A stretch of 57,870 bases of DNA from Candidatus Margulisiibacteriota bacterium (GCA_041658645.1 JBAZZV010000010.1:1-57870); one strand, 5' to 3'; counted from the first letter of the stretch, positions 32,968 to 51,618 are shown. Program-made: numbers and translations. Notes: a model not told the origin generated them from the letters alone.

Positions 32968-32991
32968 TTGTCCGCCTTTCCTTTTCATCTT

Positions 32992-34454: not shown

Positions 34455-34468
34455 AATAAGCCTCCTAA

Positions 34469-35617: not shown

Positions 35618-35634
35618 TTTAAGATACCTCCTTT

Positions 35635-35931
35635 CTAGCCCATTACCTTGGCTTCCAATTTTTCTAACCGTTTTTGAAGCGTTTTATTTTCTTCTTCCAG
35701 CTTTTTAGCCTGCGAAGAAATAAAAGAATCCTGCTGCCACCAGTCAATCCCAATCTCCATCGCCTTTTCCACCGAACACACCAGAAGTCTAATCTTAATA
35801 TTTAACAGGTCTACATCCGCGAGCGAGATCTTAATATCGCCGGCAATGACAATTCCCTTGTCCAGAACCCTTTCTAAGATATCCGCTAAATTCGTAGCAT
35901 TGGTCGCGTGGGCCATTCCTTGCATAACCAT
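35635..35931 (-). CDS. gvpJ: GvpA-family gas vesicle protein (GvpJ/GvpM-like)
   Basis: LADILERVLDKGIVIAGDIKISLADVDLLNIKIRLLV...GIDWW is the GvpA/J/M core. AAGGAGGG RBS. Confidence 0.8.
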   Translation of the reverse strand: MVMQGMAHATNATNLADILERVLDKGIVIAGDIKISLADVDLLNIKIRLLVCSVEKAMEIGIDWWQQDSFISSQAKKLEEENKTLQKRLEKLEAKVMG

Positions 35932-35950
35932 AATTTTCTTCCCTCCTTTT

Positions 35951-36211
35951 TTACGCTATTTTACTAGCTTTAATTACCAGTTCTGCGGTTTTCTTGCGTA
36001 AATTAATTATATTTCTACAAATCTCGCAGACTGAACTGCCTTGATCATATTCCAGGCATTTAAGCAGAGGAGTGAGTTCATTTATTAAAAGCTGGGCTCT
36101 ATTGCCTTTTACTTTAGGATCACGGGTCTCATTTAAACTCCGGGTTATTTCTCTTGTTTTGCGTTCCTTTTGTTGGAAAATTCCGCAGTTTACTTTTTCT
36201 TCTTCAGACAT
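35951..36211 (-). CDS. hypothetical protein (gvp cluster)
   Basis: 86 aa with a CxxC. Good RBS. Confidence 0.4.
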   Translation of the reverse strand: MSEEEKVNCGIFQQKERKTREITRSLNETRDPKVKGNRAQLLINELTPLLKCLEYDQGSSVCEICRNIINLRKKTAELVIKASKIA

Positions 36212-36221
36212 GTTCCCCCCT

Positions 36222-36578
36222 TCACATTAAATCTCCTAACGGCCCGAGATTCAGATTCAGCTCTTCGTCTTTTACATTAAATATTTCTTTTAACTCTGCC
36301 ATTTTCTTATCAAGCTTTATAAAAGTTTCGCCCATTTTCTCGATTTGTTCATCAGTTAAAGAGCCACTTTCAACTCTTCGCGCCGCTTGTTTTTCCATGA
36401 GTTTCCTGATTAGCTCTATCAGGGTTAAGACCAGCTTTGCCAATCCCTGTTCTACCTGTTTAGGATCAATATTAATTCTCTCCGCGGATTTAAGCTTCAC
36501 CGCGGAATCCTGCATCTCTGCCGGATCCTCCATTACTATCGTTAAAGAACTGGATCCATGCCCTGCACTATCCGGCAT
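36222..36578 (-). CDS. gvpK: gas vesicle protein GvpK
   Basis: INIDPKQVEQGLAKLVLTLIELIRKLMEKQAARRVESGSLTDEQIEKMG...LNLNLGPLGDLM matches the GvpK pattern. Confidence 0.75.
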   Translation of the reverse strand: MPDSAGHGSSSLTIVMEDPAEMQDSAVKLKSAERINIDPKQVEQGLAKLVLTLIELIRKLMEKQAARRVESGSLTDEQIEKMGETFIKLDKKMAELKEIFNVKDEELNLNLGPLGDLM

Positions 36579-36579
36579 T

Positions 36580-36783
36580 TTAAGTTGACTCCTTCATGCG
36601 CGCAACTTCGTACTTTTCCATGGTTTCAACCGAAGAGACCAGAACCCGCAAGCCGATGTAAACCAGATCAATATCGGCCACCGAAATAACAATATCTCCC
36701 GCCACAACCGCTCCTTTGTGCAAGACCCGATCCAGCGCTTCAACCAGAGTTACTTCTTTCTTCTCATAATAAGGCCCGGTCAT
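36580..36783 (-). CDS. small GvpA-family protein (GvpS/GvpM-like)
   Basis: LVEALDRVLHKGAVVAGDIVISVADIDLVYIGLRVLVSSVETMEKY. Confidence 0.75.
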   Translation of the reverse strand: MTGPYYEKKEVTLVEALDRVLHKGAVVAGDIVISVADIDLVYIGLRVLVSSVETMEKYEVARMKEST

Positions 36784-37562
36784 TTCCCCTCCAAACTAGC
36801 GAAGCTGTAAGCTGGCCATGGGCCGGATATCTCCAGTTCCAGGCCGGAAGCCGCATAGGTTTTCTGTAAATCCGACACTCTAGATTTAAACTCGGAGACT
36901 TTCTTTTTCGGAATTAAATAGGCGCCGTTTAAAATCGTCTCGGCCTCCTTTATAGTCAGCTCTTTGGGCTGTAGTTTATTCAAACAATTTTTATCCGCGA
37001 ACTTCACCAGTTCTTCGTGAATAGCGGCGGCATCTTCGTTCATCTTTTTTTCGCTCTCTTCAAAAATCAAACTGGCTCTTTTCCTTTTTAAGAAATACGC
37101 CGCGCCTTCTGATTTATCTTTTATCGCCAAATCAATATCCTTGATATGCTGATTGCTGCGCGCAAGCTCTTCTTTTAATTTATTGGCATCACAATAAACT
37201 TTTACTCCCCATTCCTCTTTTCCATCAAGATTTAAAATAATCTCCAGGAAACCCTGGTAATTTTTCTCAAGCATAGCTTCAAGCGATTTGGCGGTTTTAA
37301 AGATGGTCCCGAATTTTATGGGAACAACTGCCGTCTTTTCTGCAAGGCGAGAAATTATATTATTATGATGCATAACTTTTTCTTCCAGCCATTTAGGATC
37401 TTTCTCAACCTTAAGTTTAAATGCCTCTTCTTGAAAATCATCAATAGTTGTTTTTTCAACCACCGCCGCTATATCTTTGTAAGAGATAGTCTGACTCCCC
37501 TCTCCCGCAAAATTTGATTGCGAAGCAGCGATTAGGCAAAATAAACAAAGTCCTTGCTCCAT
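36780..37562 (-). CDS. gvpL: GvpL/GvpF family gas vesicle protein (paralog 1)
   Basis: MEQGLCLFCLIA... N-terminus and the GPWPAYSF signature. Confidence 0.8.
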   Translation of the reverse strand: MEQGLCLFCLIAASQSNFAGEGSQTISYKDIAAVVEKTTIDDFQEEAFKLKVEKDPKWLEEKVMHHNNIISRLAEKTAVVPIKFGTIFKTAKSLEAMLEKNYQGFLEIILNLDGKEEWGVKVYCDANKLKEELARSNQHIKDIDLAIKDKSEGAAYFLKRKRASLIFEESEKKMNEDAAAIHEELVKFADKNCLNKLQPKELTIKEAETILNGAYLIPKKKVSEFKSRVSDLQKTYAASGLELEISGPWPAYSFASLEGK

Positions 37563-37583
37563 ATTTTTTATTCCTTATTGGTT

Positions 37584-37838
37584 TTATTCATGCCGATCGT
37601 AAGAAGTAATAGTTAAATCTTTATCCAAAACCACATCGTATTGATGTTTTTCCATTATCTTCTTGCCGATGGCTTTCATAGATTCACTTTCTTCCACCAC
37701 CTCAACCCTGGCCTCCCAACCGGTATCCACAACAGAGGTCTTGACCACAAAGGCATTGGGTTTCTTAAGCGTCTTCTTAAAGAAATTTTCAACCGTTTCG
37801 GTCGCGGCTACAACATCACCTTTTGTTTTTTCAGCCAT
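37584..37838 (-). CDS. gvpO: probable gas vesicle protein GvpO
   Basis: VVKTSVVDTGWEARVEVVEESESM...YDVVLDKDLTITSYDRHE fits the GvpO pattern. AGGAGGG RBS before MAEKTKG. Confidence 0.55.
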   Translation of the reverse strand: MAEKTKGDVVAATETVENFFKKTLKKPNAFVVKTSVVDTGWEARVEVVEESESMKAIGKKIMEKHQYDVVLDKDLTITSYDRHE

Positions 37839-37854
37839 TTTAATTCCCTCCTTT

Positions 37855-38049
37855 TTATTTTCCGCCTTTGGCGGAAACTTTGGTTCCACATTTTGGACAA
37901 TACTTATAGTCGTAGCTAAACCTCCAGTGATGCCCGCATTCAGAGCATCTTATGGTAAGCGCCTCTCCGCAATTAGGACAATTATCATGGTCGCTATAAG
38001 TTGTGGTTTTACATTTTGGACATTTAAAGGGACCGGTTCCTTCCCCCAT
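37855..38049 (-). CDS. double zinc-ribbon protein
   Basis: CPKC...CPNC and CSEC...CPKC pairs. GGAGGAGG RBS. Confidence 0.5.
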   Translation of the reverse strand: MGEGTGPFKCPKCKTTTYSDHDNCPNCGEALTIRCSECGHHWRFSYDYKYCPKCGTKVSAKGGK

Positions 38050-38220
38050 TCTTATTCACCTCCTCCAGCACTTTCTTTCTTCCCTTCAATCTTTTCCTTT
38101 TCGGCTTCCAACTTTTCGGTTAACTTTCTAGTTTTCCCAACAAATTTCCCTACTATTTCTGCAGGCGCCAAGGAAGGCTAACAAGACAATATCATGGAGG
38201 CTCAAAGGCAAAAATGTCAT

Positions 38221-38466
38221 TTATTCTTCTTCTCCTTCTTTGTATTTTCGAATGGCTTCCAAGCGCTCCATTATTTTCGTTTCTCTCTTTTGATACTCAT
38301 CTTCGGTAATCTCCCCCATATCTAAAAGGGTTTGGGCTTCTAATAACGCCTGTTGAGGCTTGGCTTCATCGGAAAGCTCCTCATCGACTTGGGTCTTTAT
38401 CGCCTCAAAGATCCCCATAAATCCCTGGACCGGCAGCATTAATATATCATCGATTATAAATGCCAT
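38221..38466 (-). CDS. gvpG: gas vesicle protein GvpG
   Basis: MAFIIDDILMLPVQGFMGIFEAIKTQVDEELSDE...LLDMGEITEDEYQKRETKIMERLEAIR. Confidence 0.7.
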   Translation of the reverse strand: MAFIIDDILMLPVQGFMGIFEAIKTQVDEELSDEAKPQQALLEAQTLLDMGEITEDEYQKRETKIMERLEAIRKYKEGEEE

Positions 38467-38566
38467 ATCAAAAATCCCAATGTCAAATGGATGTCCGCCT
38501 TAGGCGGATTATTTAAATAATTTATTCCATCATTTGTCATTTTTAATTGGTCATTGGCCATTAATT

Positions 38567-39301
38567 TCAAAACATCAGCTCCACATTGGCGAAATTATAG
38601 GGCGCCAGCGGCCCGACATATTTCAAATTTATTCGATCCTTATGCTGTTCGTGGATTTTATTCACTAATTCGTCAAAATCTTTTTCTTTCTCCTTCTCCA
38701 CCAAAAAGGCCGCATTCATTAGCCAGGGATCGCCATAGGTAGAATTCAACTTATAATCAACCGCCAATTTCTTAAATTTTCCCAGCAAGTCTTCAACTTC
38801 CTTTTCTTTTTTTATCTTTAAAAGTTCCTCAACTCTTCTTCCAATCTCCATTAAATTTGGATGGGGGGAACTTTTTAATTTTTTTATCTCCGGCGTTTCA
38901 GCAATTTCGGCAAAGATCGGTTCCAGAGCCGTCCACATGACCCGCAAGCCCAGTTCTACTTTACCCTTCATATTTTTAATCATATCCTTCAAGGTTGCTT
39001 CAAAGCGTTTTAATCCCTTTTCTACTACTTCCGCTTCACTCTTCGCAACAGTGCAAAAGCGCACCGGAAGCGCGGTAAATTCTTGCATAGCTTCCTCAAC
39101 CACCAGTTCATGCGGCATCAAATTCTCCCGCAAGGCTTGATACCTCATCTTGGGCGAGCGACTTACGACTGCGCCCAGCCCATCAAAAGAAATGGCATAA
39201 ACCCTGTCACTCCGGCCTCCGATACCCGGAGTCTTAAACTCTTTTCCCTCTTTAGGGTTATCTATAATGCAATAGACATATATACCCTCTTCGCCTGTCA
39301 T
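38567..39301 (-). CDS. gvpF: GvpL/GvpF family protein (paralog 2)
   Basis: GIYVYCIID... and GPLAPYNF. Confidence 0.8.
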   Translation of the reverse strand: MTGEEGIYVYCIIDNPKEGKEFKTPGIGGRSDRVYAISFDGLGAVVSRSPKMRYQALRENLMPHELVVEEAMQEFTALPVRFCTVAKSEAEVVEKGLKRFEATLKDMIKNMKGKVELGLRVMWTALEPIFAEIAETPEIKKLKSSPHPNLMEIGRRVEELLKIKKEKEVEDLLGKFKKLAVDYKLNSTYGDPWLMNAAFLVEKEKEKDFDELVNKIHEQHKDRINLKYVGPLAPYNFANVELMF

Positions 39302-40407
39302 TTTTCCTTTGCCTCATCGGACAGCGCCGCTACCAGAGCGCCTTTGGCTACCGTGCGCAAAGGCTGGGATGCCATCCGCACTGATTTTATGGCTAAGGGA
39401 AATTTAGATCGCTCCAAAATGCTTTTAAACCTGTCTGAAAATCCGGGAGGCAAAGAAGTTCCCCCTGATAAAATAATAGAAAGGGGTTTATCAAGGCGCG
39501 GCATCTTTTTGTTCTTTTCAAATTCCCTTTTTATGTTTTCAATAACATATTCAATGAGATGACTGTAATAGATAGATAAGGCGCTTTCTATTCTGGATAG
39601 GCCGGTTTCCTTGGATAGATCAAGACTGGTTTCTTTAATAGCAGAGATGCGGCTCGCAGTTTCATCGACACTCAAAGCTACCTGCTGATCAATCCAGTCC
39701 CCGGCCTTGGTAACGCTAAAGGCAACTATGGGAACGGAAAGGTAGGAAAGGCACATATTGACCATGCCGCCGCCAAAAGAAAGTCCGATCCCAGAAAAAT
39801 CTTCATCGCCTAACTCCGCCAGAACTATGGCGTGCGCCTCATTGATTACTTTAGGGGTATAGCCAAGCCTGGCGATAAAACCATAGAGAATTTTCTCATG
39901 ATAGATAACGTTGAAATCAGCATCAATTGGCTCACCGGGGACGGAATAGTAAACGATCTCGCCATCGCGGCGGGGTTTTCCTAAAACGCTTTTAATTAAA
40001 AGTTCTACCATGGGCAAAGCTTCTTTTTCCGAAGGGCTGACAATCCCTTTCTGGAGCGGTCGGCGGGTATCTTTGTGGAAAATATTGGCAAATTCCAGAG
40101 CTTCATCTCCCACTACGTACAGCTTGTTATCTTTGATAATATACTTAACCCGGGAATTATCCAGCATATTGCGGGTAAAATCCGTGTGTTCTACCTCAAA
40201 GAAGGCATCTCGCTGAGATCTAAAGATGATGGAATCGCCGTTTTTCTCCGCGAATTTTATAAAACAGGTCCCAATGTCTATCCCCTTACCATATTCTGCC
40301 TGCCTGCCTGCCCGTCCGGCAGGCACGGCTTTCTCGATTACCTTAACCATCTTTGCAACCTTCTTTTTAACTTTTCCGCCTTTGGCGAACTTTTTCCCCT
40401 TTACCAT
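39298..40407 (-). CDS. actin/Hsp70-fold ATPase (Hsp70-NBD/MreB/EutJ-like) with a Lys-rich N-terminal tail
   Basis: Phosphate-1 GKGIDIGTCFIKFA, connect/phosphate-2 VINEAHAIVLAELGDEDFSGIGLSFGGGMVNMCL, and adenosine motif SIILSGGTSLPPGFSDRF. The GGTSLPP and INE..A motifs look more Hsp70/MreB-like than ParM-like. Strong RBS. Confidence 0.65.
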   Translation of the reverse strand: MVKGKKFAKGGKVKKKVAKMVKVIEKAVPAGRAGRQAEYGKGIDIGTCFIKFAEKNGDSIIFRSQRDAFFEVEHTDFTRNMLDNSRVKYIIKDNKLYVVGDEALEFANIFHKDTRRPLQKGIVSPSEKEALPMVELLIKSVLGKPRRDGEIVYYSVPGEPIDADFNVIYHEKILYGFIARLGYTPKVINEAHAIVLAELGDEDFSGIGLSFGGGMVNMCLSYLSVPIVAFSVTKAGDWIDQQVALSVDETASRISAIKETSLDLSKETGLSRIESALSIYYSHLIEYVIENIKREFEKNKKMPRLDKPLSIILSGGTSLPPGFSDRFKSILERSKFPLAIKSVRMASQPLRTVAKGALVAALSDEAKEK

Positions 40408-40410
40408 AAC

Positions 40411-40932
40411 TTACCTCCCTTTTGCCTTTTTAAACGCTTCGACCGCGCCTCCGAGGTTAAACTTGTCTTTCTCATCAGTTGTAACCTTTTCAAGATTACT
40501 TTCCATCTTTACCTCCTCTAATTCTATCGGCGGAATGAAACTGGTTTTAATTTGAATTCTTTTCTCCTCATCTTCTGTCTCTCTTAGCCTTCTGACACCG
40601 GGACGATAAGACCCGCTTCTGACAATCCTCTCTTTAACCGGCAAGGCCCCTATTTCACGGGCAACTTCTTTGGCAACTCCTTTAGCGACTTCCTCCAGCA
40701 TTGACTTATCTACGATAAACTTCCAACCCTCACCCGATAAAAGCTTTGCTCCTTTGGGAGCCAGAGCAAAATATTTGCCCTCATTTACCCTCAAATATCC
40801 TTGTCGAATAAGGGATTTACAAACCAGATCCGCATAACCAGGAGATATTCCTAATCTTTGGGTAATCAAACTTCTCCCGGCCTTACCCTTTTCTCCGACA
40901 ACCTTTAATATCTCTTGTTCAGTTGTTCCCAT
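40411..40932 (-). CDS. winged-helix (MarR/PadR-like) DNA-binding protein with an acidic C-terminal extension
   Basis: EQEILKVVGEKGKAGRSLITQRLGISPGYADLVCKSLIRQGYLRVNEGKYFALAPKG. GGTGAGG RBS before MGTTEQ. Confidence 0.5.
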   Translation of the reverse strand: MGTTEQEILKVVGEKGKAGRSLITQRLGISPGYADLVCKSLIRQGYLRVNEGKYFALAPKGAKLLSGEGWKFIVDKSMLEEVAKGVAKEVAREIGALPVKERIVRSGSYRPGVRRLRETEDEEKRIQIKTSFIPPIELEEVKMESNLEKVTTDEKDKFNLGGAVEAFKKAKGR

Positions 40933-40973
40933 CCTCACCCACCATTCGCTTCGCTCATAAGCCCGCCACCCCA

Positions 40974-41969
40974 CTAGGTGGGGAGAGTAAGCTTTTTAAC
41001 CGAAAATAAATCACAACCGTTGCTCGTATATTCATATAAAAGATCAAAAGCCTTTTTTAACTCCACAAATTGCTTGGCGGCCTCCGGATTATCTGGATTT
41101 TTGTCGGGGTGAAGCTTTCCGGCCATGGCACGGTAGGCCCGTTTAACCTCTTCCGGAGGGGGATCTTCTACTATTCCCAAAACTGCCTTGGCATAGAAAA
41201 TTTCATCCGGAGTTAATTTCTTTATCTCAATAGTGGCAAAACTGTAAGGGGGCAGAGGGCCTACGCACTTAAAGTTTATTTTACCCTCATACTTTCTATC
41301 TAATTCCGCTAGTTCCTGTTCAAAGACCTCCTTTTTATCTTTATCAAGCAAAAAAGCTGTATTGAAAATCATCCTGTCATTTAAAGTAGCATGCTTACAA
41401 AAAGCGCCAGCTTGTCCGCCAGAGGCGGACAAAGCCGTGATTATCTCCTCGGCAATTCTATCTTTTTTTCTATCCAGGAAATCTTTAACCATTTTTCCAA
41501 GGATTATGCCACCCTGAATTCTTTCGCCGGGAGGCTTTTGAGTAACCTCGTCTTTGAAGCATTGAATCTCTGCTATTTCTCCTATCTCTTTTAAGACGCC
41601 ATTCATCTCATTCCAAATGCCCACCAAATCCAATTCGATTTTCCCGCTTAAGGTTTCCATAATTTCTTTAAATAGTTTATAGCCCTTTTTCATTATTCTT
41701 TGAGTTTCGTTATCTCCGTCTATAAAAGTTCCAAATTTGAGAGGAACAACTGAATAATTCTGCATGACTTTTTCAATGATAGATTGATGTCTAAGCAGGT
41801 AATTTACTAGCTCATCTTTGCGCAGAGTCGCGAAAGGAATTGGTTTACTATCACTTACTACCAAAGAAATATCTTCATAAGGGATAGTAAAAATCTCCCC
41901 ACCGATCCCCTGGATATCAAAGGTCTGCAGCTTATTGTCCGGGATGACACAATAGAGGTATTTCATCAA
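40974..41969 (-). CDS. GvpL/GvpF family protein (paralog 3) fused to a C-terminal J-domain
   Basis: [11 protein letters not shown]... and VGPLPPYSF (GvpF), followed by EEVKRAYRAMAGKLHPDKNPDNPEAAKQFVELKKAFDLL, a DnaJ J-domain with the HPD tripeptide. Confidence 0.75.
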   Translation of the reverse strand: MMKYLYCVIPDNKLQTFDIQGIGGEIFTIPYEDISLVVSDSKPIPFATLRKDELVNYLLRHQSIIEKVMQNYSVVPLKFGTFIDGDNETQRIMKKGYKLFKEIMETLSGKIELDLVGIWNEMNGVLKEIGEIAEIQCFKDEVTQKPPGERIQGGIILGKMVKDFLDRKKDRIAEEIITALSASGGQAGAFCKHATLNDRMIFNTAFLLDKDKKEVFEQELAELDRKYEGKINFKCVGPLPPYSFATIEIKKLTPDEIFYAKAVLGIVEDPPPEEVKRAYRAMAGKLHPDKNPDNPEAAKQFVELKKAFDLLYEYTSNGCDLFSVKKLTLPT

Positions 41970-44143
41970 CTCACCCCCGCTTCTCCTCTTCTCTTATAAA
42001 GAGAGGGGGATGGGGGATGAGTTTTTATTTCCTTGATCGCCTGACTAAAATAGGGCCTATCAATTTCAAACTTCGAATAATCCAGTTTCCTGCCCTTAGC
42101 TTTATCGATAAAATCTCTAATCGCTAACATAGATGCTCGCCGGCAAATAGCTTCGATGTCGGCGCCGGAAAGCTCCCCGGTCTTTTCAGCCAATTCGGAA
42201 AAATCAACCTCTTTAGCTAAAGGCTTATCTTTGGCATGGATTTTAAAAATCTCGACTCTGGTCTTCTTATCCGGCAAAGGCAGTTCAAACTTCAGATCAA
42301 ACCGGCCTGAACGGAGCAAGGCGGAATCGACCATATCAAAACGATTGGTAGCGGCTAAAACAACCACTCCTTTAAGCTCTTCAATGCCATCCAGTTCAGT
42401 TAAAAACTGACTGATAACGCGCTGGGCAACTTGAGAATCTCCTCCCCCGGCTCCGCGAACAGGGACCACGCTTTCGATTTCATCAAAAAACAAAATAGTC
42501 GGCGCCGCTTGTTTGGCTTTTTTAAAGATCTCGCGGACAGCCCGCTCGGAATCACCCACATATTTAGACATAAGTTCAGGGCCTTTAACTGAAATAAAAT
42601 TCACCCCGCTCTCTTTGGCTAAGGCCTTGGCCAAAAGAGTTTTCCCGGTGCCGGGAGCGCCATAAAGCAAAATCCCTTTAGAGGGCTTAGTCGCGGCTTT
42701 TTCAAACATTTGAGGATATTCCAGCGGCCACTGAATGGTTTCTTTTAGGTTTTCCTTGATCTCATCCAGCCCGCCGATATCCTCCCAACCCACCTCCGGG
42801 ACCTCCACAAAGACTTCACGAATAGCCGAGGGCTCCACCTCTTTCATCGCCTCCATAAAATTATCCATGGTAACTTCAAGTTTCATAATTTTTTCATAAG
42901 GGATCTCCGCTACGGCAAAATCCAATTGAGGAAATAATATACGCAAGGAGGCCATAGCCGCTTCGCGGCAGAGCGCCTCAAGGTCGGCGCCCACAAAACC
43001 ATGGGTGATAGCAGCTAATTTTTCCGAATTAACATCTTTGGCTAGCGGCATGCCCCGGGTATTGATGTTTAAAATTTCCAATCTGCCGTTTTTATCCGGG
43101 ATAGGAATGCTTATTTCCCGGTCAAATCTGCCGGGACGACGCAGAGCCGGGTCAATGACATTGGGAATATTAGTCGCGGCGATCACAATTAGCTGACCCC
43201 GGGACGCCAGTCCATCCATCAGCGCTAATAGTTGCGCCACCACTCTTTTTTCAACCTGTTTTTCGCCGCCCATTTCTTCTCTTTTGGGAGCGATGGAATC
43301 AATTTCATCAATAAATAGTATCGCCGGAGCATGAGCCGCGGCATCTTCAAAGACTTCGCGTAGTCTGCCTTCTGATTCACCATAAAATTTCCCCATGATC
43401 TCCGGCCCGGAAATGCTGGTAAAATAAGCGTCAGTTTCACTGGCCACGGCGCGAGCAATCAGGGTTTTGCCGCAGCCGGGAGGCCCGTAAAGAAATACCC
43501 CTTTGGGAGCTTCAATTCCCAATCTCTCAAAAATTTGCGGATACTTAAGAGGGAGTTCGATCATTTCCCTGATTTTCCGTATTTCTTTATGTAAGCCGCC
43601 AACATCCTCATAAGTTACCCGATGCGGCCCAGCTTTAGACGCTCCTTCCGTTTTTAATTTAATTTGGGTGGTAGGAGCAATAACTACAATTCCCTCCGGA
43701 ACTGCTTCTATTACTTTAAACTCCTGATATTTGGTCCCAAAAAGGAGTGCTCTGACTCGATTTCCCGCTATAAGAGGAATGCCTTCAAGTATCCGCCCCA
43801 TATAGCGGGTATCCTGGGAAGCCATAAGGGTTAAGGGTTGAACGGTAATGCGGGTGGCAGGCTGACTTTTAGCCGGACTTACTTTTACTTTTTCATCCAG
43901 GCCCACTCCGGCATTATCTCTGATAATTCCGTCAATTTGTATGAGCCCCTTTCCCCGATCTTCGGCAAAACAGGGCATTACTTTTGCGGGAGTTGATTTC
44001 TTACCCTTTATCTCGATAATTTCTCCAACCTCTACCCCGATATCTTTCATATCATCAGGATCGATGCGGGCAATGGCCCGACCCACATCTTTAGAGAGGG
44101 ATTCGGAGACCTTTAGGGTTAATGTTTCTTTTTTCTTTGCCAT
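41966..44143 (-). CDS. Cdc48/VAT/p97-like double AAA+ ATPase
   Basis: Cdc48-N-like domain plus two AAA modules (GPPGCGKT...DEID and GAPGTGKT...DEIE, with SRH regions). The track ORF extends to 44200. [12 protein letters not shown] at 44143 is the likely start. Confidence 0.85.
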
Positions 44144-44154
44144 AATTCTTAAAA

Positions 44155-44214
44155 TGTAGGGACAACCCTTGTGGTTGTCCGTTTTTTCGGACAGGGACAA
44201 GCCCTGTCCCTACA
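44155..44214. repeat. paired hairpin element (A+B) filling the hsp20-cdc48 intergenic gap
   Basis: tgtagGGACAAcccttgtggTTGTCCg tttttt cGGACAGGGacaagCCCTGTCCctaca. The outer tgtagggaca/tgtccctaca arms are also complementary. Confidence 0.6.
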
Positions 44215-44216
44215 AT

Positions 44217-44750
44217 TCATTTTTGTATCTTTATCTCCAAAACCCCATTCTTATAGGTTGACGCCATTGTTTCAGCTTTAACTTTTGAAGGGAGCAGAAC
44301 TTCTTTGTGATACTTCCTGTCGCCTTTTGCGGCAGAAATATCCAGGATATCTTCTTTGAGATCAAGCTTGATATCAGTTTCTTCAATCCCCGGCATCTCC
44401 ACCACCAGCAAGACGTGATCCTTCTCATCGAAAATATCGACCTCCGGTTCCCTTTCTTCTTCGACCACGGTTTTGCCTTCAGGGGTACGATGGATGTTGC
44501 CGAAGGAAGAGACTTTGGGCCCGCCTTTGGCCATGGTATTGATCGTGAAACCATACATCATTTTACCTTTCTTGCCGCCTAAACCCTCAATATCTATTGC
44601 CCCCGTTTTTTTAAGCTCTTCGCCCTTTTCCGCTAGTTTTCCTACAACATCAAGCAAACTTCCCAATCCCTCAAATATCCCACCCAGGTTAAATCCTGCT
44701 TCGACTTTTGGTTCCTCTTTTTTACCTTTTTTCTCTTTTGCCATTTTCAC
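44217..44750 (-). CDS. Hsp20/alpha-crystallin family protein (GvpH-like)
   Basis: ACD: DIFDEKDHVLLVVEMPGIEETDIKLDLKEDILDISA...GVLEIKI. GTG start overlapping the gvpF stop. Confidence 0.8.
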   Translation of the reverse strand: MKMAKEKKGKKEEPKVEAGFNLGGIFEGLGSLLDVVGKLAEKGEELKKTGAIDIEGLGGKKGKMMYGFTINTMAKGGPKVSSFGNIHRTPEGKTVVEEEREPEVDIFDEKDHVLLVVEMPGIEETDIKLDLKEDILDISAAKGDRKYHKEVLLPSKVKAETMASTYKNGVLEIKIQK

Positions 44751-45496
44751 TCATCCTCCTTTATTACAACATTCACAAAATTATACGGCGGCAGGGGACC
44801 AACATATTTAAACTGCGCCCGTCCGCCTTTGGCGGAGTATTTTTTATCCAGCTCATCAACCAAAGTATCAAATTCCATTTCGCGAGCTTTATCGACTAAA
44901 AAAGCGGCGTTGAGAAACATATTTTCAGTCAAAAGTTTTCCTAAGGCGATATTATAGGCGCTGTGGCGCAAATGAGTGAGGATTTCTTCCCCCTCCTCTT
45001 CTTTTTTCTTTTCAAGCAACCTCTCAACCAACTTTCCAGCTTCAATTTGTTCCTCCAAGCCCGAAGCCCCTTTCTTCTTTTTTGCGCTAACTTCAGGGCT
45101 GTTGGCAATTTCTTTATAGATTACTTTCATGTCTTTCCAGAATGCCTTGAGCCCCAGCTCAACTTTACCGTCCATATCCCGCAAAAGACTTTTAAACTCA
45201 CTATGTCTTTTCCCTAGAAGATTTCTTATCTCGTCGGCGCTTTCGGCAATACTGCAAAACCGAACCGGAAGCACGGTAAATTCCTGCATTACTTTTTCGA
45301 TTGCCTTTTCATGGGCAATTAAATTATCCCGGCTCAAAGTATATTTTGTCATGGGGGTATTGCTGACCACGGCCGAAAGACCTTCGCAAGAAATAGTTGT
45401 CACCTCATCCCCTCGCCCGCCAATACCAATGGAACCAAAGTTACAAGGGAAGTTCGTTTCAATAATGCAGTAAATGTATTTTCCCTCTTTATCCAA
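44747..45496 (-). CDS. gvpF: GvpL/GvpF family protein (paralog 4)
   Basis: GKYIYCIIE... and VGPLPPYNF. Confidence 0.8.
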   Translation of the reverse strand: MDKEGKYIYCIIETNFPCNFGSIGIGGRGDEVTTISCEGLSAVVSNTPMTKYTLSRDNLIAHEKAIEKVMQEFTVLPVRFCSIAESADEIRNLLGKRHSEFKSLLRDMDGKVELGLKAFWKDMKVIYKEIANSPEVSAKKKKGASGLEEQIEAGKLVERLLEKKKEEEGEEILTHLRHSAYNIALGKLLTENMFLNAAFLVDKAREMEFDTLVDELDKKYSAKGGRAQFKYVGPLPPYNFVNVVIKEDE

Positions 45497-45866
45497 CAGT
45501 TACACTCCCTTTTCCATGACAGGCCAGACAGGGCAGGCCGCTTAAAGCTGATCCTCTGCCCCTACATTGCTTACATGTTTTAATTGGCTCTTTAATTGGA
45601 ACTACTCCTTTCCCATGACAGACGACACAGGAGAAAAAGCTCCTGGGGTTTTTCATTCCCCGCCCCCCGCAATAAGCACAAACTACAACCGGCGGTTGTA
45701 CGGTGATGGTTCCTTTTCCGCCGCACGCCGGACATTTAGCTTTTTGAGTAGTACCAACTAAGCCTTTCCCGCCGCAAAAAGCGCAGATAAAATCGCTTTT
45801 ATGTAAAATCTGCCCTTTCCGTTTATCTAAACCTTTTTTCCAATCATAAGCAATCCACTCTTCCAT
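45489..45866 (-). CDS. DnaJ-type CR zinc-finger protein (6x CxxCxGxG)
   Basis: CAFCGGKG, CPACGGKG, CAYCGGRG, CVVCHGKG, CKQCRGRG, CLACHGKG. Confidence 0.65.
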   Translation of the reverse strand: MEEWIAYDWKKGLDKRKGQILHKSDFICAFCGGKGLVGTTQKAKCPACGGKGTITVQPPVVVCAYCGGRGMKNPRSFFSCVVCHGKGVVPIKEPIKTCKQCRGRGSALSGLPCLACHGKGSVTVG

Positions 45867-45867
45867 A

Positions 45868-46221
45868 CTAATATTGTAGGGCCATTCTTTGCCATTTAGG
45901 GACGCCTTGAGGGGCGCCTGTGGCCGGCAGACTTTTGCGCCTAGCCCTGCCGCCGGCGGTAAGTTGGCCCGCTTCGGCCGCCTGTAGTTTCCGGCTTTCC
46001 TTTTCTATGTCAGCTAAGCGCCGCTGAATTATTGTTTTGCGGCGTTCAACGATTGAACTTTCTTTCTCGAGTCGTTCTCTCTCTTTTCCCAGCATATATA
46101 AATCCAGGAAAGTCGAGTCTTGATTGCCTCGAGGAATAGAACGCCTGCCCGTAGAATGCAGCGTCCGCAGGCCATGAAGACCGGCGATGTTCACGGCCCC
46201 GTTTTTGCGCCGCTCTTTCAT
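45868..46221 (-). CDS. hypothetical basic/coiled-coil protein (gvp cluster)
   Basis: 117 aa, overlapping both neighbours. No family recognised. Confidence 0.4.
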   Translation of the reverse strand: MKERRKNGAVNIAGLHGLRTLHSTGRRSIPRGNQDSTFLDLYMLGKERERLEKESSIVERRKTIIQRRLADIEKESRKLQAAEAGQLTAGGRARRKSLPATGAPQGVPKWQRMALQY

Positions 46222-47150
46222 ATTTTCACCCCCTCGTAATGCTTATTAATTAACTCATTAACAAGTTTCCTGACTTTAGCCTGATTGGTTCTGCTACCCA
46301 CGCGGCTGGTCTCGGACGCCAGGATGTCAGTGCAAATTTCCCGGAAGATCCCTTTATCGGCATCGTGAGTTCCATTAAGCACCTTTAAACTCTTAGCAAT
46401 CATGATGCAGCCGCGAATGGTGGGAGCAAACTCGCATTTTCCGGATCCCCGCAGAGCTCGCACAATCCCTACAATTTCCCCGGCTTTATCCTTAGATATT
46501 TTTGCTTTAGCGGCAGTAATATCTATCTCTGTTTCTTCATCATAATGATCCAGATCCATAGTAATCATGCGGTCGCGCAGGGCATCCTGACTGCGGTGTA
46601 CCCCGGCGTATTCTTCAGGGTTGCTGGTAAAGATGGCGGTAAACTCCGGGTCGACCCGAAGATAGGACTCTCCTCCTCCTCGACCAACCGGCAAATCCAT
46701 TATCTTTTCCTGCAAAATAGAAAGCAAGATATTATTAGCTTCCGGACGGGAGCGGGTAAACTCATCATATATTAATGTAAAGCCGTATTTACAGGCCACC
46801 GTTAAGCGGTTATCCACCCAGCGCTTAACCATATCTTCTTCCACTTTCAAAACACGCGAGATAAAGCGATCCACCACTTTTCGGATCCGGTAGCCGTATT
46901 CACCACCCACTAAATCAGAGGTTTTAAACTCTTCATCCCCATGAATAAGCACCACGGGCCGGCCGATTTTGCTGGCAATGTGCATCGCCAGGGTGGTTTT
47001 ACCCGTCCCCGCACCCCCGCGAAAATGGATAGGAAACCCCGCTTTTATATAAACCATAGACCGATCAGCCAATTCTTTCACCTGTTTTGTCTCCACAAAA
47101 TCGGGCATCGACTTTGGGTCCAAAACGGTAGTCATTTCATCGATGGACAT
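46218..47150 (-). CDS. gvpN: gas vesicle protein GvpN (MoxR/CbbQ-like AAA+)
   Basis: Walker A FRGGAGTGKTTLAMHIA, Walker B LIYDEFTR, 310 aa. AAAAGGAGG RBS. Confidence 0.85.
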   Translation of the reverse strand: MSIDEMTTVLDPKSMPDFVETKQVKELADRSMVYIKAGFPIHFRGGAGTGKTTLAMHIASKIGRPVVLIHGDEEFKTSDLVGGEYGYRIRKVVDRFISRVLKVEEDMVKRWVDNRLTVACKYGFTLIYDEFTRSRPEANNILLSILQEKIMDLPVGRGGGESYLRVDPEFTAIFTSNPEEYAGVHRSQDALRDRMITMDLDHYDEETEIDITAAKAKISKDKAGEIVGIVRALRGSGKCEFAPTIRGCIMIAKSLKVLNGTHDADKGIFREICTDILASETSRVGSRTNQAKVRKLVNELINKHYEGVKI

Positions 47151-47170
47151 TTTTTTACCTCCTTTTTTTT

Positions 47171-47230
47171 CGGACAGGGATAAACCCTGTCCCTACATGA
47201 TAATGTAGGGACAACCCTTGTGGTTGTCCG
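47171..47230. repeat. paired hairpin element (B'+A') upstream of gvpN
   Basis: cGGACAGGGataaaCCCTGTCCctaca tgataa tgtagGGACAAcccttgtggTTGTCCg, the same family as 44155-44214 in the opposite order. Confidence 0.6.
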
Positions 47231-47236
47231 TAAAAT

Positions 47237-47557
47237 CTATTTCCCTACCAACCCAGTCCCCTGACACTCAAGACACGGAAGATCGCCTTTGCCTATATTG
47301 CGTCCGGTGCCCTTACAGGCAGAACACTTTTTATCACTGCGCTTACCTGGAATTACTCCCTTGCCCCGGCAGGCAATGCAGGTATTGCGGGTTTGGGGTT
47401 GGACCCCGCTTCCCCCGCAATATGCACAGTCTACATAGGGTTCTTCAACCGTAACCTGCCCGGCGTCACCGCAAACCTGGCAGTTAGCCAACTCCGAGAG
47501 AAGGTCAAAAGGATCTTTGCCCGTGCCTTTACAAAAGGCACATTTTATTTTCGGCAT
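47237..47557 (-). CDS. DnaJ-type CR zinc-finger protein (6x CxxCxGxG)
   Basis: CAFCKGTG, CQVCGDAG, CAYCGGSG, CIACRGKG, CSACKGTG, CLECQGTG. Confidence 0.65.
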   Translation of the reverse strand: MPKIKCAFCKGTGKDPFDLLSELANCQVCGDAGQVTVEEPYVDCAYCGGSGVQPQTRNTCIACRGKGVIPGKRSDKKCSACKGTGRNIGKGDLPCLECQGTGLVGK

Positions 47558-47572
47558 AACCTTGCCCTCCTT

Positions 47573-48229
47573 TTAGCTCTTTCTCGGTCTTCCTCTTTTA
47601 CCTTTTTTCTTTGGCTTAGCGGATTCTTCTACTGTCTTAACTTCTATGCCCGCGGCAATGGGTTTGCCTTTTTCAATTTTTATAGCAACCCCATGCCTAG
47701 CTTTTTCCATCTGCTCCGCCATTTTCTGCCAGGCACCGCTTGCCGCTGTCATGTCATCCTTAACCTCAGCCAAATAACTACTTACTTCTTTATCTATTTC
47801 CATTATTCTCTTCTGAATTCCAGATAACATGGCCTTGAAATCTTTCAACCTATTCGTTTCTCCAGTCTTCAATGCTTCTTCAAGAGCTTCAGCCATTTCC
47901 TTATGCTCCTTCTGAAGTTCTTTAAGCATTCTCTTTACATTGCTGACTAAATCTTCAGCAAATTTGGCTAGATCCTTTGCCTGTGCGGTAGCCATCTTCC
48001 TGTGGTCGCCAGCAAAACCCTTTAATAGGCCACTGGTTGTATCCACCAAATCACCCACAAAGGAACTTAAATCTTTCCTTTGCTCCGCACCCATTTTCAC
48101 CCGATCCCGGTTAAAGCCCTTAAGGGTATCATGGGTATCTGAAAAAATATTCCCTAAAACACTTATTCTGGCATCATAATCGCCTACAATTTTATCCGCT
48201 AAACTTTTCATCTCTTGTGCAATTGACAT
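47573..48229 (-). CDS. GvpC-like repeat protein (33-residue repeats) with a basic AT-hook-like C-terminus
   Basis: LKGFNRDRVKMGAEQRKDLSSFVGDLV and LKGFAGDHRKMATAQAKDLAKFAEDLV lie 33 residues apart. C-terminal KKKGKRGRPRKS. Confidence 0.5.
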   Translation of the reverse strand: MSIAQEMKSLADKIVGDYDARISVLGNIFSDTHDTLKGFNRDRVKMGAEQRKDLSSFVGDLVDTTSGLLKGFAGDHRKMATAQAKDLAKFAEDLVSNVKRMLKELQKEHKEMAEALEEALKTGETNRLKDFKAMLSGIQKRIMEIDKEVSSYLAEVKDDMTAASGAWQKMAEQMEKARHGVAIKIEKGKPIAAGIEVKTVEESAKPKKKGKRGRPRKS

Positions 48230-48284
48230 TTCCCTTACCTCCTCTTATTTGACATAAACTTTCGAATCCCTGTCTGCCGGCAGG

Positions 48285-49040
48285 CTATTTTGTGGCAGTC
48301 ATCACCCCCTTTCCTCCTACGCCCTTCCACCTTCGCTCTTCGAGCTCCGGCGGACAAGCCGGGCTTCGGAGGACACGCTTTTTCGCCATGGTTAAAGATA
48401 AACTGCGCCAGGACCCGGCTGCGGCTATCCTTTCTTCCTGAAAGCCCTTGAGCATGGCTTTAAAGTCTCTTATTCTTATGGTTTCGCCTTTACTTAAAAG
48501 CCCCCTTATTCCTTTCGCCAACTCCTCATTTTCTTTACGATATTCGGCAACTTGGGCCTGGAAACCCTTAAGCATTTTTGTTACTTGATCCTGCCGCGCC
48601 AGCTGCTGCTTTTTAATTTCAGAGAACTTGGCCTTAAACTCGTCCAGCCGAATTTGCTCACCGGCGACTAATTGTTTATTGAAATCCGCAAATCCTTCCT
48701 TTAATGTCCCGGCAACCGCCTTTTGCTCCGCCAGATAATCTTCCAAAAGTTTCTTTACCTCTTTTTCCCGATTGCTTTGCTCTTCCAAAATCCCCCGCAT
48801 CATTTGATCAAAATCCTTATGCCGCAGGGAGTCGGTTTTGGCCAATTTCTCACGGAGTTCTTTGCTTAACGATTCTCTTTCTTCCCGGGTTTCAAGCAGG
48901 GCTTTTTGAAAACCATCCAGCATTTGGTGGGTATCAGAAAAAATGCATTCTATCGAAGCGATGCGGTCTTCATAAGAAGAAATAACATCACAAGCAAGGA
49001 ACTGCATCTTTTCCGCGACATTTGATACGCCGTCAACCAT
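48285..49040 (-). CDS. GvpC-like repeat protein (paralog)
   Basis: Repeated MLDGFQ / TLKEGF / MLKGFQ and R.(D/E)FKA units. Shares the N-terminal IFSDTH..L.GF with the 47573 protein. Confidence 0.5.
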   Translation of the reverse strand: MVDGVSNVAEKMQFLACDVISSYEDRIASIECIFSDTHQMLDGFQKALLETREERESLSKELREKLAKTDSLRHKDFDQMMRGILEEQSNREKEVKKLLEDYLAEQKAVAGTLKEGFADFNKQLVAGEQIRLDEFKAKFSEIKKQQLARQDQVTKMLKGFQAQVAEYRKENEELAKGIRGLLSKGETIRIRDFKAMLKGFQEERIAAAGSWRSLSLTMAKKRVLRSPACPPELEERRWKGVGGKGVMTATK

Positions 49041-49134
49041 TTCTACCTCCGATTATTTTAAGAAAGATTCCTGGTGCAGAATGCCTTATTCCGGGATTCC
49101 TCAGCAAGAATCGTTCCCATAAGTTTCAAGAAAC

Positions 49135-49344
49135 TTACGCTGCTGCGGTTGCCGTGAGGCCTACTGCTTCAGCATATTTCAAGAATGTCTCAACACCGGC
49201 GACCACAACTCTGGCTTCAATCGCCAGAAGCTCGATCCCGACTAAGGATATCCTTACCCACGCGTCAATCACGATGCCCTTATCGAGAATGCGATCGATG
49301 ACTTCTACCAAGCTGGAACTTCCAATTGCTTTTTCAACTGCCAT
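49135..49344 (-). CDS. gvpA: gas vesicle structural protein GvpA
   Basis: [64 protein letters not shown] is near-identical to canonical GvpA. AAAGGAGGTGA RBS. Confidence 0.95.
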
Positions 49345-49375
49345 GTTTTTTCACCTCCTTTTGTTTATAATATAA

Positions 49376-49405
49376 TGTAGGGCAAGGGCTTATCCCTTGC
49401 CGAAC
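49376..49405. repeat. single hairpin element of the same family upstream of gvpA
   Basis: tgtagGGCAAGGGcttatCCCTTGCCgaac. On the minus strand the hairpin is followed by CTACATTATATTATAAA, ~40 nt before the gvpA RBS. Confidence 0.5.
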
Positions 49406-49642
49406 TCCCTTAATCAATAATCATCATAAATTTGGGATTCTGTTTCTTTTATGGCTGTTTTTAACAGGCCAAGAATGCCTAAAAGTTTCCGCAACCACTT
49501 AAACATTCTCATTTTCCAATTTCCGGGTTGATTTTATAGTCATAAATAAAGAAAAAACCAAGGCTGTATAAAGGCATACCTTAGCTTTTCCGAAAAATTA
49601 AGTTTGGTGAAGCTCGCGGAAATCCGCGAATTTTTATTTTCC

Positions 49643-49694
<52 letters not shown>

Positions 49695-49951
49695 ACTATT
49701 TAATCTATCACTCATCATTATGATGAGATCACTCATCGGTAATTGTGTGTTCATTTTTTTACTTCTCTTTCCTTCCGAGCTTCCACCTCCGCACTCTAAG
49801 CGGACAGGTCGAAGAGCCAGGCAGTAATTTACATTACTACTAAGGAAGTATATGGCATTTAGCCCATTTGTCAAGTTGTTTTTGACCTATGGGCTATTCT
49901 TCTCTTATACCCAATTGGCTTAGACTGTAAGCCTGGAAGGAGGAATAATAA

Positions 49952-50368
49952 ATGGCAATTTTAAACGGCCTTGGCAAAAAGATCAAAATGCTAAGAAACG
50001 CAAGGGGCTTGACCCAGGAAGATTTAGATGGGCTTACTGGGCTACATTATACATTTATTGCTAAAATTGAAGCCGGGAAGAAACAACCTAGTTTAAAAAG
50101 CCTGGCAAAAATAGCTAAAGCGTTAGGCATCTCCCTTTCGCGGCTTTTTGAAGAAAAACAAAAGGTTCCTATCAAACCCCCGCTAAATAAATTAATAAAG
50201 ATTCTTGAAGATAGGGATCCAAAAGAAGTAAATCTTATTATCGAATTGGCAGAAACTATTTTTTCTAAAGCAGACAAGCTATTAAAACAAAAAGGGTCAC
50301 GACAAAAGTCGGGGGGGGGGGGGGGGGGGGGGGGGGGGATCAGGTTAAGGTATAATGGAAAGGAATGA
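49952..50368 (+). CDS. XRE-family (Cro/C1-type) HTH transcriptional regulator. The 3' end runs through the poly-G tract
   Basis: LRNARGLTQEDLDGLTGLHYTFIAKIEAGKKQPSLKSLAKIAKALGISL. The C-terminal SGGGGGGGGG is encoded by the G-tract, so the true C-terminus is uncertain. GGAGGA RBS. Confidence 0.55.
   Translation: MAILNGLGKKIKMLRNARGLTQEDLDGLTGLHYTFIAKIEAGKKQPSLKSLAKIAKALGISLSRLFEEKQKVPIKPPLNKLIKILEDRDPKEVNLIIELAETIFSKADKLLKQKGSRQKSGGGGGGGGGIRLRYNGKE
50311..50338. repeat. ~28-nt poly-G homopolymer at the island/core boundary
   Basis: Read directly from the sequence. Immediately precedes the rlmD start. Confidence 0.9.
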
Positions 50369-51618
50369 AGATACTGACACTCGACGAAAAAGGGCGGGGC
50401 GTTGGGCCGGAAGGGTTACATGTCTCCTTCGCTTACCCCGGCGATGAAGTCGAAGCTATCCTGATCAACCGCCGCAAGAAAACCGGCCGGCTGGTCAAGC
50501 TGATCGAAGGCTCCCCGAACCGCCAAACTCCCCCCTGTCCCTACTTTGGCCGTTGTGGCGGCTGCCCCTGGCAAGGGTTGAAATACAAAACGCAGTTGCA
50601 GTTCAAGGAAGCGCGGATCAAAACGCTTTTCGGTGACTGCCAACCGATCATCCCCTCGCCTGACGAGTACGGCTACCGCAACCGGATGGATTATGCTTTT
50701 GGTCCGGAGCATACCCTCGGGCTGAAGGACGACCGGGACAACATTATCGATCTCGACAGATGTCTTTTAGCTTCGGCCCGGAGCAACGAGCTGTTGGCGC
50801 GTCTGCGCCAATTCAGCGTCCGCCACGATCTAAAAGAGTACGACCGCGGACAGGGGCTCCTGCGCCACGTCGTCATCCGCGAAGGGCTAAACATCAAGAA
50901 CGCCGTCCTGAACGTCATCACCTCCAACCTGGGTGAGTTCCCTCTGGAGACACTCTGGGAGGAATTAAAAGGGAATGTTGAGGGGATCACCTGGAGCGTT
51001 AATCTCTCGCCGGCCGATCGCTCCTACGGCGACCTCCAGGCGACGCTCGGCCAGGACTATTTATTGGAATCTTTACTCGACCTCAAGTTCAAGGTCCCGG
51101 TCCAATCGTTTTTCCAAACCAATACCCGCCAGGCGGAAAGGCTGCTACAAGTTATTAAAGATTTTGCCGGGTTGCAGGGAGGAGAAATGGTCTTCGACCT
51201 TTACGCGGGGACAGGAAGCATCGGTCTCTCGTTGGCCGACCGCGCCCGGGAAGTGATCGGTCTGGAAGAGAACGAAGCGGCGGTTGCGCTCTCCCGGGCC
51301 AACGCCGAGCTGAACGGCTTGAAGAACTTTACCTCCCTGGCCGGCCGGGTCGAAGCGGTCATCGCTTCACTCGGCAAAAAACCAGAGATCGTCATTCTTG
51401 ATCCGCCCCGCCCCGGCTTACATAAGAAGGTGATCCAGGAGCTGGGGAAGATCGGGGCGCCGAAAATCGTCTATGCCTCTTGTAATCCGACCACCCAGCA
51501 AGTCGATGTTGCCGGATTAACGGCGTTCGGGTATCAGATCAAGCAAAGCCAACCCCTCGATATGTTTCCCCACACCCCGCACATCGAGAATGTTATCTTA
51601 CTTGTTAAGAGAAGCTAA
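50365..51618 (+). CDS. rlmD: 23S rRNA (uracil-C5)-methyltransferase RlmD/RumA family
   Basis: TRAM domain, a CPYFGRCGGCPWQ Fe-S cluster motif, and a SAM methyltransferase DLYAGTGSIGL...ILDPPRPG. Confidence 0.85.
   Translation: MKILTLDEKGRGVGPEGLHVSFAYPGDEVEAILINRRKKTGRLVKLIEGSPNRQTPPCPYFGRCGGCPWQGLKYKTQLQFKEARIKTLFGDCQPIIPSPDEYGYRNRMDYAFGPEHTLGLKDDRDNIIDLDRCLLASARSNELLARLRQFSVRHDLKEYDRGQGLLRHVVIREGLNIKNAVLNVITSNLGEFPLETLWEELKGNVEGITWSVNLSPADRSYGDLQATLGQDYLLESLLDLKFKVPVQSFFQTNTRQAERLLQVIKDFAGLQGGEMVFDLYAGTGSIGLSLADRAREVIGLEENEAAVALSRANAELNGLKNFTSLAGRVEAVIASLGKKPEIVILDPPRPGLHKKVIQELGKIGAPKIVYASCNPTTQQVDVAGLTAFGYQIKQSQPLDMFPHTPHIENVILLVKRS

Follow-up and report, generated by a model that had tools for sequence, protein, structure and literature searches.

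Introduction

Repetitive extragenic palindromic sequences (REPs) of the GTAG superfamily, known from E. coli (REP/BIME), Haemophilus and Pseudomonas, are composed of an unpaired head, a GC-rich stem of 6-9 bp and a short loop (PMC3733652; Nunvar et al. 2010, PMC2817692). The class is defined by a GT(A/G)G head that stays unpaired at one end of the palindrome (PMC2817692, PMC3733652), as in the published REPs GTAGGGTGGGCTTcAGCCCACC of H. influenzae and TGTAGGAGCGGCCTTGtGTCGCGAA of P. putida (PMC2817692 Table 1). Sub-families are set apart by complementary stem changes, and head-head (HH) and tail-tail (TT) dimers joining different stem types a few bp apart have been described (PMC3733652). The units lie mostly between co-directional or convergent genes and near stop codons, and the genes for the REP-associated tyrosine transposases (RAYTs) have their own units at their flanks. 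Mobilisation in trans by RAYTs, which recognise the GTAG head and hairpin in single-stranded DNA (ssDNA), is established for the class (PMC3479197, PMC8266576). In E. coli, REPs stabilise the upstream mRNA and damp translation when their distance to the stop codon is below 16 nt (summarised in PMC12306157). GTAG REPs, of which 24 family consensus sequences have been given, are found predominantly in Gammaproteobacteria (PMC3733652, Di Nocera et al. 2013).

Here we describe five hairpin units located between positions 44155 and 49405 of a 57,870-nt DNA stretch that constitutes a whole contig of an NCBI metagenome-assembled genome (MAG), Candidatus Margulisiibacteriota bacterium (GCA_041658645.1 JBAZZV010000010.1:1-57870; hereafter the window). 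The units sit in three intergenic gaps of a gas-vesicle (gvp) island and are very probably GTAG-superfamily REPs, a further member of a class already known, and not island-specific gvp control sites.

With the described GTAG REPs the family shares the anatomy, the sub-families, the closely spaced HH and TT heterodimers, the placement relative to genes and, in other genomes, the flanked RAYT genes, and it differs from those of PMC3733652 in its hosts, which are mostly uncultured (Margulisiibacteriota/Saganbacteria, WOR-3, Zixibacteria, Stahlbacteria, Brocadiales and Syntrophaceae) plus Prevotella. The REPIN-RAYT systems of Pseudomonas (Bertels and Rainey 2011, PMC3116915; RAREFAN preprint 10.1101/2022.05.22.493013) resemble it in two respects: one of our sites is an inverted pair with the heads outside that folds as one long hairpin, the arrangement proposed as the mobile unit, and RAYT genes are flanked by family REPs, here in other genomes. 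Unlike in Pseudomonas REPINs the spacer of this pair is only 6 nt, and unlike REPIN-RAYT systems, described as mostly vertical, the family has identical 27-mers in several phyla and the units of the contig occur only in a low-GC island. Like the subterminal hairpins of IS200/IS605 elements, the units are short and would be recognised as ssDNA by a Y1/HUH transposase, the RAYTs of the family matching Pfam Y1_Tnp. Unlike in IS200/IS605, the units of the window have no transposase gene between or beside them, they are scattered singly or as dimers and are not the left and right ends of one element, and the associated proteins fit the RAYT model NF047646 (87-101 bits) far better than the IS200 model NF033573.

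Five hairpin units of one architecture at three intergenic sites

The initial annotation of this DNA had pointed to related hairpin elements at three intergenic sites, and these indeed hold five units of a single architecture. Each of the five is 27 nt long and consists of TGTAG, a perfect 8-bp GC-rich stem enclosing a 5-nt YTTRT loop, and a final G. Site 1, between hsp20 and cdc48, is made of unit A as its left half (44155-44181, plus strand, TGTAG-GGACAACC-cttgt-GGTTGTCC-G) and unit B1 as its right half (44188-44214, minus strand, TGTAG-GGACAGGG-cttgt-CCCTGTCC-G). Site 2, between a zinc-finger gene and gvpN, has on the left unit B2 (47171-47197, minus strand), which combines the B1 stem with the loop tttat, and on the right unit A' (47204-47230, plus strand), identical to A. 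Site 3, upstream of gvpA, is the singleton C (49376-49402, plus strand, TGTAG-GGCAAGGG-cttat-CCCTTGCC-G). All five units are intergenic, with A, A' and C oriented one way and B1 and B2 the opposite way. The three stem types of the window (GGACAACC, GGACAGGG and GGCAAGGG) are distinguished by compensatory changes, which leave the palindrome intact.

Site 1 is an HH heterodimer with the GTAG ends outside and the 6-nt spacer TTTTTT between A and B1. Site 2 is a TT heterodimer, again with a 6-nt spacer, in which the GTAG ends are inside and the facing heads make a perfect 11-nt palindrome with a 4-nt spacer, TGTCCCTACAT-gata-ATGTAGGGACA (47188-47213). A minus-strand tail CCCTACATT(A/T)T had been ascribed to every hairpin; it is present at A, A' and C and missing at B1 and B2, which have the opposite orientation. 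This "conserved tail" GTCCCTACATT corresponds to the unit head AATGTAGGGAC in reverse complement, in other words to the GTAG head on the other strand.

The units closely adjoin the neighbouring genes. On the transcribed strand unit A ends 8 nt ahead of the cdc48 ATG (44146). The TGTAG of B1 begins 2 nt past the hsp20 stop codon, which places the B1 stem 7 nt past it; A' begins 6 nt past the stop codon of the zinc-finger gene, with its stem 7 nt past that stop. B2 is followed on the mRNA strand by A8 and then by the gvpN Shine-Dalgarno GGAGG, and unit C stands 32 nt before the gvpA ATG (49344) and 17 nt before the Shine-Dalgarno of that gene.

Scans of the contig found the pattern TGTAGGGNCA..TGNCC 5 times, where shuffles lead one to expect 0.02 occurrences; 4 of these are units and the fifth, at 45531-45566, is a loose match in coding sequence. 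A search for GTAG followed by a perfect hairpin returned exactly the five units and, apart from them, a 7-bp hairpin at 372-388 that is unrelated, and the three sites account for 6 of the 16 perfect hairpins with a stem of at least 8 bp in 57.9 kb. Shuffles and hairpin scans together rule out that the units occur by chance. A relaxed scan tolerating up to two stem mismatches and either GTAG or GTGG as head turned up no decayed copies in the rest of the contig. A possible sixth unit at 45531-45567 (minus strand), a loose match inside the zinc-finger open reading frame (ORF) 45489-45866, has no 8-bp stem and was discounted. Identity with a known RNA family was likewise rejected, as Rfam covariance models run on both strands of 43900-50400 gave no match at E <= 1.

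Two further features of the dimers were observed. Both A copies share the same 29 nt, AATGTAGGGACAACCCTTGTGGTTGTCCG (44153-44181 and 47202-47230). Moreover, a 2.96-kb module running from gvpN to hsp20 lies between both REP types, with their order swapped and their orientation kept (A+ B- | module | B- A+). This bracketing could be a coincidence, a split BIME-like cluster or the trace of a module insertion via REP-REP recombination.

The family is widespread and independent of gas-vesicle genes

To follow the family beyond the contig we relied on one motif scan of 185,579 species genomes with the pattern TGTAGGGMMANNNYTTRTNNNTKKCCG, whose matches are listed in 120 stretches; the counts given below for other genomes refer to these listed stretches and loci. 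About 17 matches were expected by chance (1.2e12 positions / 6.9e10, 596 Gb), compared to a motif found in at least 120 stretches from many phyla. The lineages among the matches listed include Margulisiibacteriota/Saganbacteria, WOR-3, Zixibacteria, Stahlbacteria, Desantisbacteria, Brocadiales, Syntrophaceae, Chloroflexi, Prevotella, Aggregatibacter and others. The pattern had left three inner stem positions per arm free and, because these positions are unconstrained, they answer the question of structure without circularity. Stems complementary at 8/8 positions were found in 124 of the 155 matches listed, where chance would give 1 in 256.

A family-level search of the 120 stretches led to the identification of 296 units. 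Neighbouring units within 60 nt of each other form 61 HH, 30 TT and 18 direct pairs, the gaps of the TT dimers ranging from 3 nt to 56 nt. Every genome has a preferred pair of stem types of its own. The A+B pair of the window occurs 12 times as HH and 7 times as TT, and it is also present in another Margulisiibacteriota MAG, JBDRHP01 (loci L082, L083 and L120). A C stem with the loop tttat was seen in Saganbacteria and Margulisiibacteriota loci (L068, L084 and L122). Copy numbers can be substantial, with at least 49 units in 17 stretches of CAYRBN01 and at least 23 in the Syntrophaceae genome CAZAGD01. Even exact 27-mers recur: that of A at least 22 times in at least 18 foreign loci, that of B1 in at least 16 and that of B2 in at least 19 foreign loci, and identical 27-mers are found in MAGs of Margulisiibacteriota, WOR-3, Zixibacteria, Stahlbacteria, Ignavibacteria and Acidobacteria.

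According to a crude gene call, 24 of 181 unit clusters lie inside genes. The intergenic clusters are placed between co-directional genes in 68 cases, convergent genes in 27 and divergent genes in 18, and 29 of the 122 distances measured to a stop codon are 15 nt or less.

None of this follows the gas-vesicle genes. A tblastn search with 15 island proteins gave a match in 3 of the 120 loci, none of which is a gvp cluster, and no match in the other 117, which rules out a gvp-specific element. The island-specific role that the initial annotation had considered for the family is not retained, since the motif abounds in other genomes irrespective of the island, and the hairpins should not be reported as gas-vesicle regulators.

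Related gvp islands give the same picture. The island of L003 (GvpN 93% identical) has a different GC-rich element before gvpN, that of L004 (GvpN 84% identical) has unrelated hairpins after hsp20, and no family units were found in L126 and L127. L128, which is of the Stahlbacteria type, lacks any such unit ahead of gvpA and gvpN; an inverted pair of its own, GTAGGGCAA...TTGCCCTAC, is found at 8780-8845, between two small ORFs downstream of gvpN, a junction homologous to none of the three sites of the window. At the homologous junctions a related single unit is present only in L005, and L003, L004, L126, L127 and L128 are without. The absence of units from these junctions in most related islands is expected of a mobile repeat and not of a conserved operator; intergenic gaps of gvp clusters collect whichever REP family the lineage has.

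Family units flank RAYT genes in other genomes

RAYT-like genes of the IS200-like Y1 type have family units within 400 nt in 8 of the 120 loci. In L068 (Saganbacteria) one inverted unit stands on each side of the RAYT gene, heads outward, with the C stem and the loop tttat; in L028 (Prevotella) seven tandem units lie on one side of the gene and four inverted units on the other. Four of the RAYT-like proteins match Pfam Y1_Tnp. The three proteins tested against NCBIfam NF047646, "REP-associated tyrosine transposase", all pass its cutoff of 80 (100.6, 87 and 92.9 bits), and the same three score 20-29 bits on the IS200 model NF033573, under its cutoff of 55. These RAYTs are well diverged, the Saganbacteria protein being 48% identical to that of WOR-3 and 34% identical to that of Prevotella. 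What emerges in outline is a GTAG-type REP family whose cognate RAYTs occur in several phyla that have been little studied. Among the possibilities raised in the initial annotation, that of small mobile REP-like repeats is the one borne out by the anatomy of the units, by their presence in at least 120 stretches in many phyla and by the flanking of RAYT genes in the 8 loci.

The seven tandem units of L028 (5887-6132), directly upstream of the RAYT gene, form an unusually regular head-to-tail array with a period of 35-37 nt. Two WOR-3 RAYT ORFs (L023 802-1437, minus strand, and L105 2197-2832, plus strand) contain an in-frame REP dimer just past the HUH motif, which lengthens them by about 30 residues (..VQQHGQPQGLSLHR..RDRARPCP..) compared with the Saganbacteria RAYT.

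Several observations weigh against a REP assignment. At contig scale the units look island-specific: all five copies fall within 5.3 kb of the low-GC island, the approximately 40 kb of GC-rich flanks carry none, even decayed, and none is found in the approximately 52 kb making up the rest of the contig. A motif regular expression and tblastn with four RAYTs found no RAYT gene in the 57.9-kb contig; the REP units account for the sole weak tblastn matches in the window, owing to the in-frame REP dimer of the WOR-3 RAYT ORFs. Five copies compare with the usually high genomic count of REPs, in a MAG covered here by one contig only. Exact 27-mers shared across phyla are unusual for REP families, which are typically lineage-specific, and some of the cross-phylum sharing could come from mis-binned MAG contigs. 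Finally, in L005 (GvpN 83% identical) a single related hairpin, ATGTAAGGACAGGT-cgtg-ACCTGTCC, occupies the same position immediately ahead of the gvpN Shine-Dalgarno; its head is degenerate (GTAA) and its stem compensated. This occurrence hints at retention, and perhaps function, at the gvpN junction.

Proposed origin and possible effects of the units

By analogy with the described systems, the REPs would be non-autonomous and a RAYT, an HUH/Y1 enzyme of the IS200/IS605 superfamily, would act in trans, recognising the unpaired GTAG head and hairpin in ssDNA and cutting and joining there. Units would in this way spread into intergenic DNA irrespective of the function of the neighbouring genes, and those of the window would have settled in three intergenic gaps of a low-GC gvp island that was itself probably acquired horizontally. 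Mobilisation in this genome is proposed on the model of these systems, and so is any effect on gvp expression. That the units arrived with the island is suggested by their confinement to it and by the presence of A/B dimers in loci of 0.46-0.48 GC of a Margulisiibacteriota MAG. As for the identical 27-mers across phyla, they could reflect an old and tightly constrained family, horizontal spread or mis-binned MAG contigs.

The initial annotation had taken the sites for operon junctions. They are intercistronic or upstream junctions within a co-directional gene array, and a promoter consensus scan of the minus strand showed no promoter-like site adjoining sites 1 or 2, so that nothing supports this description. 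Lying inside co-directional gene arrays, the units should be transcribed as part of minus-strand gvp messages. Folding of the minus-strand RNA supports a stable structure at two of the three sites: site 1 gives one long hairpin (-33.8 kcal/mol, z -4.8) and site 2 three adjacent hairpins (-42.2 kcal/mol, z -4.6), while site 3 forms a single 8-bp hairpin that is unexceptional in its 101-nt context (z -0.66). Once transcribed, the units would probably form stable RNA hairpins, as an effect secondary to their spread. Such hairpins could protect the upstream message from 3' exonucleases, and those located 7 nt past the hsp20 and zinc-finger stop codons could damp the translation of both genes, as do E. 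coli REPs. By this analogy an effect on gvp mRNA, or on Hsp20, the zinc-finger protein and downstream genes, through stabilisation or translational damping, is plausible. RNA processing or attenuation, which had also been put forward, is hence kept only as a possible side effect of transcribed REPs and dropped as a dedicated signal.

These considerations matter for engineering, for example of acoustic reporters, since a gvp cluster moved to a heterologous host carries two stable inverted-repeat dimers that could affect mRNA fate, translation or cloning stability.

Alternative explanations

The alternative that survives best is that the units are exapted cis-regulatory RNA hairpins, kept by selection to set relative gvp expression, possibly as a 3' exonuclease barrier, as a processing site or through translational damping of hsp20 and the zinc-finger gene. 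It is compatible with a REP origin, and we regard it as unlikely. The stable folding of the two dimer transcripts agrees with it, as do stems that fall inside the window of less than 16 nt in which E. coli REPs damp translation (PMC12306157), the related hairpin with a compensated stem at the gvpN junction of L005, and the conservation of all five units in the three near-identical assemblies available (the window, L001 and L002). However, these three assemblies are 99.9% identical, which makes their agreement uninformative on selection. In addition L003, L004, L126 and L127 have no family units there, the REP-like pair of L128 sits at a different junction, and the presence of both unit orientations means that no single RNA motif is conserved.

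We hold similarly low expectations for a broader scenario in which the low-GC island brought a foreign REP family into a higher-GC genome otherwise without it. REP/RAYT families would then cross phyla on islands, leaving the shared 27-mers as a trace, and the dimers would afterwards have been recruited to adjust the ratios of the gvp proteins.

Mobile REPs account better for the sites than operators do. In this explanation, suggested in the initial annotation, inverted repeats such as TGTCCCTACAT-gata-ATGTAGGGACA would be bound by the winged helix-turn-helix (wHTH) or XRE regulator of the island and would control gvp promoters. The perfect 11-nt palindrome of site 2 with its 4-nt spacer has the appearance of an operator, and site 3 is suitably placed upstream of gvpA, between it and the divergent XRE gene. 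Such a palindrome is, however, the automatic outcome of two inverted REPs, and TT dimers recur elsewhere. The 27-mers of A, B1 and B2 occur in their many foreign loci in genomes without gvp genes, and neither site 1 nor site 2, both set between closely spaced co-directional genes, has a promoter-like site on the transcribed strand. An operator would be restricted to the island and conserved with its regulator, yet L003, L126, L127 and L128 have no units at the homologous junctions, and L128 does so while having an XRE-type gene. We consider this role highly improbable.

That the units are intrinsic terminators or attenuators splitting the gvp array into transcription units is just as improbable: unit A does appear terminator-like on both strands in a consensus scan, with the minus-strand tail CTACATTTTA, but B1 and B2 are followed by A-runs on the transcribed strand, A' by CUACAUUAUCAUG and C by CUACAUUAUAUU, neither of which is a clean U-tract, the one good T-run (44182-44187) comes after unit A on the plus strand, which is non-coding, and the terminator-like sites of the region exceed those of shuffles only modestly (15 versus 8.7 +/- 2.9). 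A U-containing tail, and a weak one, is thus found on the minus strand at 1 of the 5 units, short of what defines a Rho-independent terminator, and the consensus scans for terminators and promoters on the transcribed strand were unconvincing.

The gas-vesicle island and additional observations

The gvp island extends over approximately 32,000-50,340 with a GC content of 0.41-0.47, compared to 0.55-0.59 in the housekeeping flanks, which carry mutL, topA and panC on the left and a tRNA methyltransferase-like gene and aroA on the right. The identities initially given to the cdc48, gvpN and gvpA genes are correct, the products being a Cdc48-like AAA ATPase, GvpN (AAA_5) and GvpA. In the order of the minus strand, GvpA (49135-49344, ATG at 49344) is followed by two coiled-coil proteins and then by a DnaJ-type zinc-finger protein of 106 aa (47237-47557, minus strand, stop codon 47237-47239), GvpN (46218-47150, minus strand) and a 117-aa protein. 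Next come a second zinc-finger protein encoded by a CxxCxGxG ORF (45489-45866, minus strand), GvpF/L (44747-45496, minus strand), an Hsp20-like protein (44217-44750, minus strand, stop codon 44217-44219), the Cdc48-like ATPase (41966-44146, minus strand, ATG at 44146) and further gvp genes on the same strand. The wHTH regulator gene is located at 40411-40932 and the XRE-type gene, divergent from gvpA, at 49952-50368.

Two other assemblies, L001 and L002, contain the same island with 99.9% identity, and the left island junction (mutL, topA) is confirmed by another one, L130. No tRNA, and hence no tRNA-linked integration site, was found in the window. L001 (18.4 kb) spans roughly the island alone, as judged from length arithmetic. 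This extent and the GC contrast fit an island that is strain-variable or horizontally acquired.

The cdc48 ATG at 44146 has no Shine-Dalgarno, and the REP dimer of site 1 fills the space where one would stand. From this ATG the protein is 726 aa long and starts 9 codons ahead of the CDC48_N match. The gene callers used for L001 and L002 placed the start at TTG 44200, inside the B1 loop, giving 744 aa. In the relatives L005 and L128, cdc48 overlaps the upstream gene.

Two very long poly-G tracts, one on each side of the XRE-type gene, were observed at the right end of the island. Tract 1 (49643-49691), between gvpA and the XRE gene, consists of (TG)8 followed by G33 in the window, and its G run is G27 in L002 and G9-A-G6 in L001. 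Tract 2 (50311-50338) is a G28 that encodes a Gly run at the C-terminus of the XRE-type protein and marks the right edge of the island, where low GC gives way to high GC. Tract 2 interrupts other assemblies from either side: L001 stops in it, L131 begins with G46 and L132 with G27, and the right island junction is bridged only by this contig. These tracts could be hypervariable homopolymers, acting in phase variation or as G-quadruplexes, or an artefact of assembly or sequencing.

A second GC-rich element of about 60 nt, CCTCCGAAGCCC..GGAGCTCGAAGAGCGAAGG..GGGCGTAGGAGG, is located around 48310-48385 on the minus strand. It was not found in the 120 REP loci listed. The element lies at the 3' end of a 251-aa ORF (48285-49040), the C-terminus of which may be repeat read-through, and a related copy is present in L003 (1093-1145) before gvpN, where the window has a REP dimer.

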